A DNA stretch of 64,000 nt from Myxococcota bacterium (lineage in GTDB: Bacteria > Myxococcota_A > UBA9160 > UBA4427): positions 5,696,001 to 5,760,000 of the forward strand of contig OZ252299.1 of the NCBI GenBank assembly GCA_965250285.1. The letters run 5' to 3'. Shown here piece after piece: positions 22,611-31,900 of this stretch. Position 1 is the stretch's first letter. Each line of letters opens with the position of its first letter. The notes beneath the pieces are model-generated. The model ran no database searches, was not told where the DNA came from, and saw only the letters and a program-made list of their open reading frames with translations. The translations under genes and the position numbers were made by a program.

Positions 22611-23888
22611 TCAGGTCGCCGCCGCCTCGACCGCGATCAGCTCCGAAACGACGAGCCCGGCTTCGTCGTCGCCGTCGCTCACGTCGACCCGCTGCATCAC
22701 CTGCGTGATCTCTCGGGCCAGACCGTCGGTCAGGTTCAGGAAGCGCAGGAAGATGCCGTCGGGGCCATCATCGCGATCGACCACGGCCTCGACGAGCACG
22801 GGCTCACTGCGCGGGCCGGCGTGGAGCGCGAGCTTGACCTTGAATCCGAGGCCGAGCTCGGGGTGGCTATCGACCCGCATGCCGCCGGTGGAGATGTCGC
22901 GGCCGAGAAAGACGCGCGCGGCCTCGTCGACCAGCGCGACGACTCGGCTCTCGTAGTTCACGCGATCGGCGCCGCGGCGCTCGTTCGGTGCGGGCTCAGC
23001 GACCGCCGCCGGCGCTGCCGGGCCAACGACCGATGCGACCTTGGGAGCGGTCTTCGCGCGAGCGGGCGCCGGTCGCGCCGGGCGCTCGGCGACCGGCGAA
23101 GATTCGGCGACGTTGTTCATCACGCGCGAGACGCCGGCCACCTGGTGGCGCACCTGCACGGGACCTCGTCGGTGCAGATCGACGAATCGCTTGACGTGCT
23201 CGGCTGCCTTCTTGCTCATCTCGTCGAAGCGGATGCCGACGATCGTGCCGTCTTCGTCGCCGTCCTGGATGCGGACGGCCGTGCCGTTCACGCGCAGCAT
23301 GCCGGCCTTCGTGAGCTCTCGGCCGATCGCGAGGCGCAGTTTCGTGCCCTTCTCGACCGGTTGATCGGTGAGGATGCGGGCGCCCTTCTGCGAGATCTCG
23401 GCGAGCGTGGCCGGCTTGGCGAAGAGGCCGGTGCGCACGCGAATCTCGGCGCCAATGCTGACGCGTTCGCGCTTGCGCCGTTCGGGGCCGTTGTAGACCG
23501 CGTGCAGGAGCAGCAGCCGCAGCGCCATCGGATGCACGGGTCGATTCACGACGTAGTCGATGCGCAGACGCTGCATCTGACTGCGCAGCGTCTTCGAAGC
23601 CTGGTCGGCGATGGCGACGAGCGTCGGGCGCGGGCCGCCTGGCTGACTGAACTCGAGCAGCCGCTTGGGCGTCGCGATCACGGTGCGCCACTGGGCCTTC
23701 GCCTCGGCCGGCCGGAGCGCGCCGACGCGCTCCCGGATCGGGATCCCGAACGCGTCGAGCTGGGAGCGTAGATCGCGCAGCTCTCCGTCGTGCAGCAGCA
23801 GGATCAACGGGTCTTCGGTCGAGTGGGCCAAGTTCGGATGTTCCGCGACGGTGATGCGCCGCCCCGGCGGCGGCGTGGGTTGGGTCAC
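22611..23888 (-). CDS. Double PilZ-domain protein with N-terminal pseudo-receiver-like domain
   Basis: ERRKRER...EISQKG and ERRGADR...DISTGG c-di-GMP motifs. Start uncertain (ORF open to 24017). Confidence 0.85.
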   Translation of the reverse strand: MTQPTPPPGRRITVAEHPNLAHSTEDPLILLLHDGELRDLRSQLDAFGIPIRERVGALRPAEAKAQWRTVIATPKRLLEFSQPGGPRPTLVAIADQASKTLRSQMQRLRIDYVVNRPVHPMALRLLLLHAVYNGPERRKRERVSIGAEIRVRTGLFAKPATLAEISQKGARILTDQPVEKGTKLRLAIGRELTKAGMLRVNGTAVRIQDGDEDGTIVGIRFDEMSKKAAEHVKRFVDLHRRGPVQVRHQVAGVSRVMNNVAESSPVAERPARPAPARAKTAPKVASVVGPAAPAAVAEPAPNERRGADRVNYESRVVALVDEAARVFLGRDISTGGMRVDSHPELGLGFKVKLALHAGPRSEPVLVEAVVDRDDGPDGIFLRFLNLTDGLAREITQVMQRVDVSDGDDEAGLVVSELIAVEAAAT

Positions 23889-24049: not shown

Positions 24050-24538
24050 ATGGCAGACCGAGACGGCACCGGGCGTGGAAGACCGCCGAGCGACGGCGAT
24101 GCGGGCGGGGATCTCGACGTCGGCTTCGGTGTGTCGATCCCGGCCCGCGAGCTGTCGGTTCGCGTCAGCCGATCGAGCGGGCCCGGGGGGCAGCGCACCA
24201 ACAAGGTCGCCACCCGGGTCAGCCTTCTGTGGGATGTCCGCCGCAGCGTTGCCCTCGATGACGCTCGCCGGGCGCGCGTGCTCGAGCGACTGGCCTCGCG
24301 GCTGACCGCGCGAGGTGAGCTCGTCGTGCACGCCCAGGCCAGCCGCGAGCAGACGCGCAACCGCGCCGAGGCGCGGCGCCGGCTCGCGGCGATCGTGCGT
24401 GAAGCGCTGACGCCACCCGGCCCGCCGCGTCGCGCGACCAAGCCGACGCGGGGCTCGGTCGAGCGACGCCTCGGTGAGAAGCGGCGCCGCGGCGAGACCA
24501 AGCGGGGACGCCGTCCCACGTCGCGCGACGACGACTGA
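24050..24538 (+). CDS. arfB: Alternative ribosome rescue factor B (peptidyl-tRNA hydrolase)
   Basis: SRSSGPGGQRTNKV, basic tail RRATKPTRGSVERRLGEKRRRG. Confidence 0.95.
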   Translation: MADRDGTGRGRPPSDGDAGGDLDVGFGVSIPARELSVRVSRSSGPGGQRTNKVATRVSLLWDVRRSVALDDARRARVLERLASRLTARGELVVHAQASREQTRNRAEARRRLAAIVREALTPPGPPRRATKPTRGSVERRLGEKRRRGETKRGRRPTSRDDD

Positions 24539-24810
24539 GCCGATCGCCACGGGTGTACGCGCACGCGCCGTCACGGCCCCGACCGAAGGGCGTTCCATCG
24601 CTCGGCGACACGGCTCGCCCTTCGACGTGACAGGGCGATGCGAAGAGTCACGTCACCGTCTGGTGTTGGACTCTGGTCTGGATCGAGGTCCATGGGTGGA
24701 TCGACGTCTCGGCGCCCCCGAACGGGTGCGGCTCGACCCATGCGAAAGCTCCGTGGCATCGATCGAAACCCTTGGTTCGAGCCACTCGAAAACCGGTCCG
24801 TTTGTGAAAC

Positions 24811-24847
24811 CGACACCGCATGTGACCGAGCACGGTGTCGCCTTTTC
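24811..24847 (+). terminator. Possible intrinsic terminator hairpin
   Basis: CGACACCG-N14-CGGTGTCG followed by CCTTTTC. Confidence 0.35.
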
Positions 24848-25239
24848 GCTCTAAATCACGCGATTCACGTGGGAATCGAGTGCGAAGGCGCTATATCACA
24901 AGGCGGGTTGGAGAGGGATGCTCGCGATGACCGCCCCTTGTTAAGCACACCGATTTTCAAGATCCTGCGGGTCTCGTTATCGGAACAACGGGTCGGGCCC
25001 ACCAGATCCCTTGCTTCAGCCGCCAACGGAATCGGGCTCCATGCCCTCGGGCATGCGCGGCAGGTCGATCGAGCCGAACCGGGGAGGTCGTGCCGAACGC
25101 TCGTGCGGACGGGTCGCAGGGCACCACCTGCGACCATCGCCCCCGCACGCGGACGAGCATCGGCATCACGTCCCCGGGCCAACACATCGCCATGTGGCTG
25201 GACATGCTCTCTCGACGGGTCCGAATTGACGGAGACGCA

Positions 25240-25476
25240 ATGGCAGCACGAAAGAGTTCGAAGAAGACGGCAAAGAAGAAGGGGACCTGGGGAGGCCGGC
25301 GCCCGGGCGCGGGTCGCCCGAAGGGCTCCGGCAAGGGCCCGTCACCCGATTCGCGGCGAAACCGGGTGGCGGTGATGCTCACGGACATCGAGCTGAAGTC
25401 CTTGCGCAGCCAGGCGAAGAAGAAGGGGCTTCCGGTCTCGACCGTGGCCTACGAGTACATCGCCCGGTCCCTCTAG
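25240..25476 (+). CDS. Small basic DNA-binding protein (AT-hook-like motif plus RHH-like C-terminus)
   Basis: MAARKSSKKTAKKKGTWGGRRPGAGRPKG...RVAVMLTDIELKSLRSQAKKKGLPVSTVAYEYI; GGAGA RBS. Confidence 0.8.
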   Translation: MAARKSSKKTAKKKGTWGGRRPGAGRPKGSGKGPSPDSRRNRVAVMLTDIELKSLRSQAKKKGLPVSTVAYEYIARSL

Positions 25477-25589
25477 TCCGAGTAGTCCGAGCACCTCGAG
25501 GACGAAGGCAAGGGATGCATCGAGGCCCGGTTCGCGTGCGCGGAGCACGCGGGCCGGGCGCTTCTGCATTCGAGGCACGCGAAGCCGGT

Positions 25590-26372
25590 TCAGCTGCCCT
25601 CGGCTGATTGGGGCAGCAGTGCATCCACGCGCTCGACGAGTCGCTGCATGTCGTCGCGCACCCGCTGTCCGCGGATGTGCGGGATGATCTCGACGCGCCG
25701 CCAGTACGGATAACACTCGCGGTTTCGCTCGGGGCAGCTCGCCGGCGGGCGGGCGTACGACGAAGACGAGATCAGCCCGAGCCGCTGCATGTCGTCACGG
25801 TCGCTCTTCGAGAGCGCCCACTCACTCGACAGGTAGATCATCACGCCGAGCGGTCGCTGATGCGATCCGACGAGGTTGGTCACATACGGGTCGCGTCGGG
25901 CGCGCGGGTCGGCGTGGCCGCGCAGCTCGATCGCTTCGACGTTCTGCCAGACGGCGTCGCGCTGGCGCAGTGATCGGAGCAACAGCGAGACCGCCAGCTG
26001 CACCTTGCGCATGCCCTCTTCGTTCAGCTGAGCGCTCGTTGGATCGTCGAAGAGCCGGTCGCCGAACGTGATCGCGCCCGTCTCGCAGCTGGGCGACAAA
26101 CCCTCGGCCTGCAGCTCGACGTTCTCGCAGATCTCTCGAAGCGTGTCCCGCCACGCGAGGGCGAGGGACGACCGCGCATCGAGCTCGGCGCGGATGCGCG
26201 GGGACGGGTCGGGGGCCGGCTCGACCGGGGCCTGGACCGGTGCGTCTCGATCCACCGCAGCCACCAGCAGCAGGATGCCGGCCACGGCCGCGCCGATGTA
26301 GGCGATCGCGACGAAGACGTCGCCGGCGGGGCTGGTCTCGCGGCCGCCGAACGCCGAGTGCCGGCGCGCCAC
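25590..26372 (-). CDS. ZorB/MotB-like protein: N-terminal TM plus OmpA-like peptidoglycan-binding domain
   Basis: Asp before TM (AGDVFVAIAYIG); GAITFGDRLFD, IELRGHAD, NLVGSHQR, WRRVEI. Confidence 0.8.
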   Translation of the reverse strand: MARRHSAFGGRETSPAGDVFVAIAYIGAAVAGILLLVAAVDRDAPVQAPVEPAPDPSPRIRAELDARSSLALAWRDTLREICENVELQAEGLSPSCETGAITFGDRLFDDPTSAQLNEEGMRKVQLAVSLLLRSLRQRDAVWQNVEAIELRGHADPRARRDPYVTNLVGSHQRPLGVMIYLSSEWALSKSDRDDMQRLGLISSSSYARPPASCPERNRECYPYWRRVEIIPHIRGQRVRDDMQRLVERVDALLPQSAEGS

Positions 26373-26375
26373 GGC

Positions 26376-28835
26376 TCAGCGCTCCTGCTCTTCTTCGGCC
26401 GGGGTTTCGTCCTCCGCCCCCGCGTCGCTCGGCGTCGAGTCTGCGTCGGCGCTGCCGGGTCGGCCCCCGAGCAGGCCGGCGAGGCTCAGCTCCTCGGCCT
26501 TCTCCTCGAGGGTCGCGTCCGGGGCGAGGTCGGTCGCAAGCGGGCGGGGCGGTCCGACGTCGGCCGGGTCCCCCTGCGCGCCGTCGCGGCGGGCATACGG
26601 ATCGGGCCCCAGCTCACGACCGGCGAACGATGCGCGACCGGTCGTCGCATTGGCGAGGTCGCTCGACGTCTGGCGCAGAAAGTCGTAGCCGCTGGCCCGG
26701 GGCGCCGAGACCGGTGGCCAGCTCGGGCCGCTCCCGCGCTCGTCGCCGCTCGTCGCGCTGGGCGCCGGCGCGCGGTCGATGCGGAAGCCGGGCGAAGTCT
26801 GGCTCGCGGCCGGGTCGGGCGAGCTCGAGGCCGGGTGTCCTCCCTCGGTCGGAGGCGGACCGGGATTGGAGCTCGGGGCTGCGGTGCCCTGCCGAAGCGC
26901 TTCGCGGCTCATCTGCGGGGCGGGGGTCTGGCTCGTCGCCGCTTCGGACGTACTCGAGGGAGCCGTCGGGGCGCCGCCGGGGTCGGAAGGCGGCGCGCCC
27001 TGGGCCTCGACTGCGAGCGGTCCGCTCGTCGCGGGGTTCGGCCAGCCGAAGGGGCCCCGGCCCGCGCGGGGGTCGAGCGACGCGCTCGCCTGCTCGATGG
27101 TCGCCAGCGCCTCGGCCGTGTTGTTGAGCTTTCGGGAGAGATCCGCCGTCGAGGCTCGGAACTTGCGGCCCTCTTCGCGCAGATCGCCGCGCAGGGCGTC
27201 CATCGTCTTGTCCATGCCGAGCGCGTGATCGCCGAAGTTCGCGAGCGCGCGCGCGACGTCGGACGTGCGCTCGTCGAGCTGGGTGAGCGACGAGCGCACG
27301 GGCTTCATGGCCTGGGTCATCCACTCGCCGAGGCCCGTGATCTCGGATCGCGCGCGTTCGAGCGCGCTGTGCAGCTCGCGCGCCGTACCCTCGGCCGAGC
27401 GCATGGGCTGGCTCATGCGTTCGATGGTGTCGTTGCTCTCGGTGATCGTCTCGCGCAGGCGTCCGACGGTCTGGCCGAGCGCGTCGTCGACGGCACGGAG
27501 CGACTTGGTCAGGTTCTCGCCCAGGCCGGTGGACAGCGCTTCGAGCGTCGCGCGGATCTCGCCGAGGCTGACCTCGACGAAGTCGCGCTGCTCGCCGACG
27601 GCCGCGGCGGCCTGCTGCAGCGAGGCGCGGACGTCTTCGGCCGACTGGGCCACGACGACGTGGGTCGAGTCGATGCGCTCGGCCGTCGAGTCGAGACTCA
27701 CCCCGGTTTCGCGCAGGCTCGAGAGCACGGGCTGGAAGTCGACGACGGTCTGCCGGAACGACCCCGAGGCGGCGTCGACGGTGGCCGCCGCGGCATCGAG
27801 GGTCTGGGTCACGCGTGCGTGTGCTTCGCTCTGATCGGCCATCTGATTGAACGCCGCCGCGAGGCCGCCGGTGACTGAATCCTGGTGCTCGGTGGCGCGC
27901 TCGAGCGCGCCCTGGAGGGCGCCCATGTGATCGTCGACGCCCTGTCGCACCTGCAGCGCGAGGTCGCGGATCACGCTCTGTACGCCGGCGCGTTGCTCGT
28001 CGCTGACGAGCGTGGCGGCGTTGGCCGTCGAGCGCTCGATGCGCTGCAGACCCCGGTCGATCCGCTCGGTCAGGTCGGTGGTGAACCGCGTCAGCTCGCT
28101 GCCGAGCGCGACCAGCGACTCGTGCTGTGCGCGCTGGCCGAATGCGGTGAGCTCCGAACTCGAAACGAGCGGGAAGCAGCGCTGGACGCTGCGGTCGAGG
28201 ACCGATGCGGCGCCATCGAAGGCGCCGTCGATCATTCGGCCCGCGATGCCGGCCACGATCGACAGGCCGATCCCCCAGAGCGAGGCCCGCAGCGACAGTC
28301 CGACCTGGGCGACCAGACGGGCGGTATCGATCGGATCGGCTGCGTCGCCGGGGTCGAATGCCTCGCTGCCGAGCGCGAGGCCGAGCCCGACGAAGGTGCC
28401 GAGCAGGCCGATCGCGAGGAAGAGCGACGGGATCGCGGGCAGGAGCGAGCGCCGCGCTCCCATCGGGAGCAGCGGGTGCTCTTCGAGGACGTCGAGGAAG
28501 CGCACGGGCGACCGTTCGTCGGCGCCGTCCGTCAGGGCCGCGCGCCAGCGTTGGATGAACAGGGCCCACTCACTCTCGAGCGACGACTCGGCGAATGTGG
28601 ACATCACCTCGTTGCGCTGCGAGGGCGTCGGCTGGTCGCGGTCACCGGCGGCGAGAGAGACGGCGCGGCTCAGCGAGAGCACCCGCCACAGACGGATCAA
28701 CAACGGGACGTAGACGAACGCCACAGCCAGCAAGAAGGCCACGAGCACGAGCCCGATGGCCATCTGGCTGGTCGGATCGGGCGACCACAAGAGGTCGAAC
28801 AACCCGATCGAAGCGTTGGGGGCATACGAATTCAA
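26376..28835 (-). CDS. ZorA-like MotA/ExbB-family protein with long cytoplasmic helical tail and disordered C-terminus
   Basis: Three TMs including IPSLFLAIGLLGTFVGL and ASLWGIGLSI, about 385 aa helical tail, about 230 aa P/S/A-rich end. 3 bp gap to the ZorB-like gene. Confidence 0.8.
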   Translation of the reverse strand: MNSYAPNASIGLFDLLWSPDPTSQMAIGLVLVAFLLAVAFVYVPLLIRLWRVLSLSRAVSLAAGDRDQPTPSQRNEVMSTFAESSLESEWALFIQRWRAALTDGADERSPVRFLDVLEEHPLLPMGARRSLLPAIPSLFLAIGLLGTFVGLGLALGSEAFDPGDAADPIDTARLVAQVGLSLRASLWGIGLSIVAGIAGRMIDGAFDGAASVLDRSVQRCFPLVSSSELTAFGQRAQHESLVALGSELTRFTTDLTERIDRGLQRIERSTANAATLVSDEQRAGVQSVIRDLALQVRQGVDDHMGALQGALERATEHQDSVTGGLAAAFNQMADQSEAHARVTQTLDAAAATVDAASGSFRQTVVDFQPVLSSLRETGVSLDSTAERIDSTHVVVAQSAEDVRASLQQAAAAVGEQRDFVEVSLGEIRATLEALSTGLGENLTKSLRAVDDALGQTVGRLRETITESNDTIERMSQPMRSAEGTARELHSALERARSEITGLGEWMTQAMKPVRSSLTQLDERTSDVARALANFGDHALGMDKTMDALRGDLREEGRKFRASTADLSRKLNNTAEALATIEQASASLDPRAGRGPFGWPNPATSGPLAVEAQGAPPSDPGGAPTAPSSTSEAATSQTPAPQMSREALRQGTAAPSSNPGPPPTEGGHPASSSPDPAASQTSPGFRIDRAPAPSATSGDERGSGPSWPPVSAPRASGYDFLRQTSSDLANATTGRASFAGRELGPDPYARRDGAQGDPADVGPPRPLATDLAPDATLEEKAEELSLAGLLGGRPGSADADSTPSDAGAEDETPAEEEQER

Positions 28836-28897
28836 GACAGGGGGGCCTCACTGCGGGGCCCCGATCCTGTGACCCAGGACACCGACCGGCGTGAGTC

Positions 28898-28915
28898 TAT
28901 CAGTGATGGCTGATA
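28898..28915. promoter_or_regulatory. Palindromic putative operator upstream of the zorA-like gene
   Basis: TATCAG-N6-CTGATA, 63-80 bp upstream of the TTG start. Confidence 0.45.
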
Positions 28916-28919
28916 TCTG

Positions 28920-28976
28920 AAGGGAATTCTCGTGGGCTTATGCCCACGAATCACCCTTGGGGATCACAAAATCCCC
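28920..28976 (-). terminator. Twin hairpins after the gcvP stop
   Basis: TCGTGGGC-TTAT-GCCCACGA (28930-28949, flanked by AAGGG/CCCTT) and GGGGAT-N6-ATCCCC (28959-28976). Confidence 0.5.
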
Positions 28977-28987
28977 TCGAGCGCCGC

Positions 28988-31900
<2,913 letters not shown>

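Follow-up and report, generated by a model that had tools for sequence, protein, structure and literature searches.

A ZorA-ZorB-like gene pair without Zorya effector genes: a probable domesticated, non-rotating descendant of the type I Zorya motor in one bacterial family

What does a ZorA-ZorB pair do when no Zorya effector gene stands beside it? To our knowledge, every description of Zorya so far is of a mobile defence system. The question is raised by a stretch of 64,000 nucleotides from a Myxococcota bacterium (assembly GCA_965250285.1, contig OZ252299.1, positions 5,696,001 to 5,760,000 of the forward strand), referred to below as the window, in whose coordinates all unprefixed positions are given. 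Two adjacent genes of the window encode a ZorA-like protein (A) and a ZorB-like protein (B). A first-pass annotation, made from the sequence alone, described them as an orphan rotary motor and proposed either a domesticated envelope-sensing motor or a Zorya variant whose effectors act in trans. On balance, we favor the reading that the pair is a domesticated, non-rotating descendant of type I Zorya ZorAB, a core pair in one family, and likely a passive tether between peptidoglycan and cytoplasm. The two genes are:

26376..28835, minus strand: ZorA-derived subunit A, 819 amino acids, TTG start; three membrane helices, cytoplasmic domain, long helical tail and disordered tip
25590..26372, minus strand: ZorB-derived subunit B, 260 amino acids; one membrane helix, Pro-rich linker, OmpA-like peptidoglycan-binding domain and four conserved cysteines

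The earlier description of an 819-residue, three-helix A with a long helical tail, close to B, was borne out by the coordinates, the motifs and (for the helices) an AlphaFold model. The gap from A to B is 3 bp, and the genes stand in the zorA-then-zorB order. Both were scored as genes by a hexamer-trained gene caller, and the motifs GLLGTFVG, ASLWG, GHAD and RRVE were all found. GC content across A and B was 0.68-0.75, as compared with 0.686 for the genome. The AlphaFold model divided A into three parts:

28176..28775, minus strand: membrane region of A, helices 21-63, 125-156 and 171-220
27081..28160, minus strand: helical tail of A, residues 226-585, one continuous helix
26379..27077, minus strand: disordered Pro/Ser/Ala-rich tail tip of A, residues 587-819

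The tail would be ~54 nm long if extended (360 residues × 0.15 nm). Residues 241-300 were the best conserved part of A. P136, T147 and S185 are the counterparts of E. coli ZorA P136, T147 and S184.

Homology placed both proteins in the ZorA/ZorB lineage and not in MotAB, ExbBD or TolQR. A matched the PADLOC hidden Markov model (HMM) ZorA1 at 1.8e-15, and B matched ZorB1 at 1.6e-8. When profiles of the orthologues were compared with the PDB, E. coli ZorA and ZorB came first (A to 8qyk, 1.6e-14; B to 8qyd, 8.8e-7); a single-sequence phmmer search of the PDB with B gave nothing meaningful, whereas its profile did match. Foldseek searches with the AlphaFold models ranked ZorB (8vvn, 8qyd) and ZorA (8qyh, 8qyd) ahead of MotB and ExbB. 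In the ESM Atlas, A fell among ZorA clusters (0.95), its recognition value being slightly below threshold. Curated NCBIfam cut-offs were not reached (NF033914, 67.5 vs 190 bits; NF041788, 11.3 vs 400); in Pfam, MotA_ExbB stayed below its cut-off for A (18 vs 22.9 bits) and OmpA gave no match for B. The best HMM, profile and fold matches all favored the proposed ZorAB architecture, with no grouping with ordinary MotAB or TolQR. MotAB/PomAB, ExbBD and TolQR have the same 5:2 membrane scaffold and gave weaker fold matches; unlike the pair, they have no long tail and all need the motor Asp. The four exbD/tolR-type genes of the source genome keep the Asp motif intact. A stator phylogeny preprint excluded ZorAB (10.1101/2024.07.22.604496).

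Type I Zorya ZorA5B2 (E. coli, 8qyd; Shewanella sp. ANA-3, 8vvn) shares with the pair the gene order, a three-helix ZorA with long helical tail, the membrane-proximal cytoplasmic ZorA domain (prolines P126/P136 correspond to P121 and P136 here) and an OmpA-like ZorB wall domain with two cysteine pairs. Unlike type I Zorya, the pair has no catalytic Asp, a Pro-rich linker, filter Thr/Ser residues that are unconserved across orthologues, a tail of ~54 nm followed by a 230-residue disordered tip with new motifs, no zorC or zorD, and a fixed core position.

The first of these differences concerns the residue on which the motor depends. Three features of B are relevant:

26298..26300, minus strand: Tyr25 (TAC) of B, at the position of the ZorB/MotB catalytic Asp (GAC in an intact copy)
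26319..26321, minus strand: Asp18 of B, the acidic residue two positions ahead of the conserved Trp; shared with intact ZorB proteins that keep the catalytic Asp
26199..26252, minus strand: Pro-rich non-helical linker of B, residues 41-58, joining the membrane helix to helix 1 of the wall domain

The TM-proximal Asp of B noted in the first-pass annotation is not the motor aspartate. In a pairwise alignment with an intact ZorB, encoded on an island of a genome of the same family (G158, described below), D18 fell on the D of GGDFW and Tyr25 fell on the catalytic Asp. D18 is the acid of the motif GG[DE]FW, and the catalytic position is Tyr25. We counted residues at this position in B orthologues scoring at least 160 bits (37 sequences, 34 of which cover the membrane helix): Val occurred in 12, Ala in 11, Tyr in 5, Gly in 3, and Leu, Ile and Met in one each; Asp or Glu occurred in 0 of 34. 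The 20 ZorB sequences used for comparison all had Asp, but they had been picked for that motif, and a few other distant matches also lacked it. In A, no conserved acidic residue able to stand in for the Asp was found in helices 2-3. The ion-filter pair (E. coli T147 and S184) was Ser/Thr at both positions in 6 of 40 A orthologues and at neither in 12.

The linker was also changed. Residues 41-56 of B were non-helical in the AlphaFold model (predicted local distance difference test score ~54), and the direct helix fusion of ZorB was absent. At least one Pro within 22 residues past the membrane helix was present in all 34 orthologues and in 10 of 20 Asp-bearing relatives; at least two were present in 29 of 34 and 3 of 20, respectively.

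In Hu et al. (PMC11946911), the Asp is described as universally conserved and essential, and E. coli ZorB D26N and ZorA T147A/S184A abolished defence; the E. coli ZorB wall domain is fused without a linker, and a GGGSGGS linker mutant appears free to rotate. Mariano et al. (PMC11890865) report that D24 is crucial in Zorya types I and II. According to this published ZorAB work, no ion-driven rotation is expected here because the Asp is absent. The pair is almost certainly not a working motor, judging from these residues. Of the earlier description as an orphan ZorA/ZorB-like rotary motor, the orphan pair stands; the rotary motor is not supported, with the Asp missing from 34 of 34 orthologues and the rigid helix replaced by a Pro-rich linker. 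We found no account of a ZorAB that lacks the Asp or has been domesticated in a literature search that reached few subscription papers and no supplements (where orphan zorAB counts may be found). Some distant ZorB-like matches outside the clade also had Asn or another residue in place of the Asp (P0043, P0115, P0134, P0105, P0090), which suggests further independent losses.

The wall-binding core of B and the helical tail of A were retained, and two conserved motifs lie in the tip:

25617..26204, minus strand: peptidoglycan-binding domain of B, with C82, C96, G152-H153-x-D155, Y163, N166, S170, R173, C213, C220 and R226-x-E228
26589..26612, minus strand: motif LGPDPYAR of A, residues 742-749, candidate docking site
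26466..26489, minus strand: amphipathic motif LSLAGLLG of A, residues 783-790, candidate docking site

Each of the four cysteines was kept in 36 of 37 B sequences, D155 in 34, N166 in 32, S170 in all 37 and R173 in 35. B probably binds the wall, as judged from this domain. The motif GP[DE]P[YWF] was found in 36 of 44 A homologues and was absent from three intact ZorA proteins, including that of G158. L785, L788 and L789 of A were at least 90% conserved, while conservation of residues 601-720 was 0.17-0.22. A basic-aromatic C-terminus (e.g. RRGFFGRRK) was seen in many A orthologues and in the intact island ZorA; A of the source genome ends acidic.

The distribution of the pair was determined in genomes that appear to be metagenome-assembled genomes (MAGs), incomplete ones being included in the counts of absence. 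The B profile matched 42 of 225 genomes of the class: the source genome, 40 of 67 others of its family, and one weak match outside the family, which lies in a flagellar operon. Within the family, A matched 50 of 68 genomes (a few as fragments) and B matched 41 of 68. Among 401 genomes of the phylum, only six outside the family matched, at E values of 2.6e-21 or weaker, and the one inspected has a zorC-like gene after B. Two homologues carried the source label Myxococcota. A search for related loci gave no relative from the B query, nor from P0018 in metagenomes. The site is marked by two neighbors:

28988..31900, minus strand: gcvP (glycine dehydrogenase), upstream neighbor marking the site; not considered a functional part
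25240..25476, plus strand: convergent gene for a 78-amino-acid basic protein with a weak NikA-like (ribbon-helix-helix type) match; host neighbor, also found where the pair is absent

Of 42 loci, 32 have gcvP no more than 1 kb upstream of A and 35 have it within 4 kb. As the first-pass annotation stated, the pair sits between gcvP and the convergent small gene, with no low-GC island; its GC content is host-like, and no effector gene lies in the locus. Quick trees were built for A (21 rows) and for RpoB (19 rows). They agreed in most groupings, namely in the eight g14 genomes and their subgroups, in G022 with G013, and in the g6 trio; they differed in truncated, long-branch g19 copies and in the order within g6. 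These findings indicate that the pair is vertically inherited at a fixed site of the core genome.

Are Zorya effectors encoded elsewhere? None of zorC+zorD, zorE or zorF+zorG was present in the 64-kb window. No zorC or zorD match was found in any of 42 loci with A, some of which reached no further than 2-3 kb downstream. In the source genome (one contig, 95% complete), PF15611, PDLC00616, PDLC00643, PF11828 and PF11445 gave no match, and ZorC, ZorE, ZorF and ZorG were not found; PDLC00616 and PF11828 matched no control genome either. tblastn with three ZorC queries and three ZorD N-termini against the source genome gave no match. The absence of effectors rests mainly on these direct queries, because HMMs can miss ZorC of a related Zorya branch: the HMM search missed the G158 ZorC copy, and the third gene of a Desulfobacterium Zorya locus (L102) had no HMM match. 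An SNF2 gene (G000:2187378-2190341, in the source genome) was tried as a ZorD acting in trans and rejected: the match was limited to the helicase core (positions 431-883), the N-terminus gave a weak SWIM match, and the neighbors were housekeeping genes. This SNF2 core was the sole match to a ZorD model, and no zorC, zorE, zorF or zorG was found in the genome; the suggestion of effectors in trans was not upheld. ZorC-type genes were found in 2 of 68 family genomes, each within its own Zorya locus. Payne et al. (PMC8565338) state that ZorAB is not sufficient for defence.

An effector of another kind would fit a different reading, in which the pair senses phage or envelope damage and, without rotating, passes the signal to a host effector whose gene lies elsewhere, one other than ZorC, ZorD, ZorE, ZorF or ZorG, that docks on the tail motifs. 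The wall-binding dimer and tail architecture are intact, the conserved motifs are new and might bring in a different effector, defence genes are typically lost in a patchy way, and a divergent ZorC of a related branch can escape HMMs. Against this, the Asp is needed for defence in type I and type II Zorya (PMC11946911, PMC11890865). The site is fixed and host-like in GC content, has no defence neighbors, and is vertically inherited; the nearest intact ZorC matched 1 of 68 family genomes (its own), and the ZorD N-termini had no match in the source genome. We regard such a sensor as rather unlikely.

Selection on the pair was estimated by the Nei-Gojobori method with Jukes-Cantor correction, as the ratio of nonsynonymous to synonymous substitution rates (dN/dS) in 17 chosen pairs of genomes. 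By this crude pairwise estimate, median dN/dS of A was 0.27 for the membrane part (12 pairs), 0.23 for the tail (13 pairs) and 0.46 for the tip (11 pairs); that of B was 0.16 for the wall domain (13 pairs) and 0.27 for the N-terminus (12 pairs). The neighbors gave 0.11 (gcvP, 11 pairs) and 0.24 (kefC, 5 pairs). Between the source genome and G001, values were 0.25 for the A membrane part, 0.18 for the A tail and 0.23 for the B wall domain. For the A tail, nine pairs that keep B gave dN/dS of 0.04-0.30 and one mixed pair gave 0.38, as compared with 0.62-0.82 for three pairs that lack B. These three are also the most diverged, but kefC in two of them still gave 0.10 and 0.32. These ratios indicate that the pair is under purifying selection and that A relaxes where B is lost, pointing to two genes that act as a pair. 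"Domesticated" was thus a fitting term in the earlier proposal, given the fixed core site, vertical inheritance, purifying selection and lack of zorC/D in 42 loci.

The same values bear on whether the pair is a slowly decaying Zorya remnant with little function, lost piecemeal under weak selection against misfolded membrane protein. Its independent losses of B, A or both across the family, and the free drift of its membrane helices, are what a remnant would show. The frames are open, however, and tail and wall-domain dN/dS of 0.04-0.35 over genus-level distances is near that of housekeeping neighbors; the four cysteines are kept in nearly all orthologues, motifs are conserved inside a disordered region, and selection on A relaxes once B is gone. 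We consider a remnant distinctly unlikely. The first-pass annotation had named a decayed Zorya as an outcome that would refute it; descent from type I Zorya held, whereas zorCD at this locus in relatives, and decay where both genes are kept, were not seen.

The origin of the pair was sought among intact relatives. A profile search of 1.8 billion representatives gave 25 matches at E values up to 1e-30, followed by a drop; P0018, P0022, P0025 and P0027, among the top matches, keep GGD[FS]W[AI]SYSDL. In G158 the usual copy follows gcvP, and another lies on an insertion sequence-rich island of ~60% GC, flanked by sequence rising to ~70% GC. This island (L067:5591-12503, G158:C2) encodes a ZorB with Asp (9.3e-37), a ZorC above the PF15611 cut-off and a ZorD (4.7e-242). 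A patatin-like phospholipase gene and PDC-S11-like genes lie nearby, and the island is at a contig end. Because of this position, and because G158 is a MAG, assignment to this host is likely, not certain. By sequence comparison, the island zorABCD is the closest Asp-bearing relative with known context. Source-genome A and island ZorA were 30% identical over 595 columns, and the B proteins were 29% identical. A Desulfobacterium locus (L102:414-7412) has zorA, zorB, a gene for 398 amino acids and zorD in the same order as the island; the 398-amino-acid product had no PADLOC match at 1e-6 and no Pfam match at 0.01. ZorC of this branch can thus escape HMM detection.

The branch of G158 and L102 corresponds to PADLOC ZorB1 PDLC00609 and ZorD1 PDLC00633. 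The G158 island copy and the pair share GG[DE]FW, the four cysteines, an Arg before the Thr/Ser pair of the third membrane helix, and a colinear tail to approximately residue 540. Unlike the pair, the G158 and L102 copies have retained zorD together with the Asp and a helical linker, zorC being HMM-confirmed only in G158; the G158 copy lies on a low-GC island and has a ZorA without GPDPY. In a quick B tree of 66 rows, 43 Asp-less rows fell on one side of a branch (support 94), nested among Asp-bearing sequences. These results show that the pair descends from type I Zorya ZorA-ZorB. Two more distant type I Zorya loci were seen in relatives, at L071:6283-13206 (G030; by PADLOC) and L072:6397-13733 (G005; by PF15611 and gene order).

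The intact island copy also bears on an ion channel or motor with another chemistry, in which A Arg183 or the B acidic residue two before the conserved Trp would do the work of the Asp. R183 is present in 35 of 40 A proteins, Asp or Glu two before Trp in 28 of 34 B proteins, and A of the source genome keeps T147 and S185. R183 and the acid are not replacements, because the intact island copy with a true Asp has both; moreover, the latter position is at the cytoplasmic edge of the helix and the acid is absent in 6 of 34, and each of the seven kinds of residue found in place of the Asp is either apolar or Tyr. Another ion chemistry is very unlikely. Arg183 was also tried as a new plug of the ion site and rejected, as the intact island ZorA has Arg too. 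Loss of the Ca2+ site (E. coli E86/E89) was rejected by eye as a marker; the intact island copy is without both residues.

Inactive subunit copies can poison oligomers, and both G158 (pair) and G005 (A only) also carry intact Zorya. A dominant-negative damper, which would limit self-toxicity by joining the subunits of incoming mobile Zorya or by sequestering their effectors, is nevertheless highly improbable, as identity to the intact sister is only ~30% and ZorC-type genes, in 2 of 68 family genomes, are too rare to explain family-wide selection.

We return to the favored reading, a domesticated, non-rotating ZorAB descendant. A passive-tether role is likely because there are no nearby effectors and no Asp, yet the site is fixed and conservation is family-wide. 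A Zorya island was probably captured next to gcvP in the family ancestor, followed by loss of zorC/D and the Asp-to-Tyr change. Five A and two B subunits may still assemble, and the B dimer would bind peptidoglycan. By analogy with the E. coli GGGSGGS mutant, the flexible linker would let the A ring swivel or shift freely. The ~54-nm tail and the two new motifs could then keep a cytoplasmic partner a set distance away from the envelope, serving as a landmark or scaffold. More tentatively, the anti-phage motor may have become a family-wide structural "pseudo-motor", a swivel anchored to the wall and unpowered, with a 50-nm tail and newly evolved tip motifs that position a machine in the cytoplasm.

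If this is true, a defence system became part of the core cell architecture through switching off its motor. In any case, the family as a whole retains, at a single site and under selection, a ZorAB in which two changes known from E. coli mutants, absence of the Asp and a flexible linker, occur together naturally. With the intact ancestor type in a related genome, it offers a matched pair for studying ZorAB without rotation, the need of signalling for torque, and the path from defence gene to core gene. In defence surveys, any zorAB pair called as an orphan should be examined for the Asp.

Several observations weigh against this reading, in addition to the crude nature of the dN/dS estimate and the divergence of the B-less pairs noted above. 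The pair is dispensable. No A was matched in 18 of the 68 family genomes, every g7 and g17 genome among them; in two g7 genomes gcvP lay no more than ~2 kb from the small neighbor gene, with neither A nor B between. B was absent downstream of A in eight loci. Losses are in progress: A is deleted with a B remnant left in G138 (L069) and G167 (L100), and B is broken beside an intact A in G152 (L092). A of the source genome retains both T147 and S185, so that here only B is clearly disabled. At the position of the wall-binding residue L155 of E. coli ZorB, the clade mostly has Gly, Ala or Thr, and at that of Y151 it has Thr; wall binding may therefore be altered. The support of 94 for a single origin of the Asp loss was not starred. 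In a B tree without the membrane part (48 rows; five long-branch rows dropped and g14 thinned) nesting held, but P0022 was unresolved and two changes were needed.

Scanning of 24500-29300 gave no promoter-like and one terminator-like site, both at chance level, and a search of sequencing runs listed no RNA data set. The convergent 78-amino-acid protein has the motif WGGRRPGAGRP and family-wide conservation, and a lower-GC intergenic stretch of ~700 bp lies before its gene, towards arfB. In many relatives a gene convergent on the pair (L014:10416-11849, L068:7111-8619) encodes two FHA domains and a divergent class III cyclase-like domain; as a partner it was rejected, since the source genome has no full-length orthologue. 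A small lipoprotein (L068:8627-9172; G000:C1:5169966-5170508) has a Pro-rich linker and a PxDxPxYP motif, with an ESM Atlas lead to AF_1845/PF27226 at 0.91. One copy often lies 3′ of B, or of A where B is lost. A role as dedicated third subunit was not supported: members of the family were found in 149 of 225 class genomes, and the source genome has none at this locus. The gene for a tandem PilZ-domain protein (22611-23831; two PF07238 stretches and a weak TIGR02266 match) is syntenic with the pair, and genus g14 has a pilin-like gene beside this tandem PilZ gene or fused to it (L076:12418-14604).

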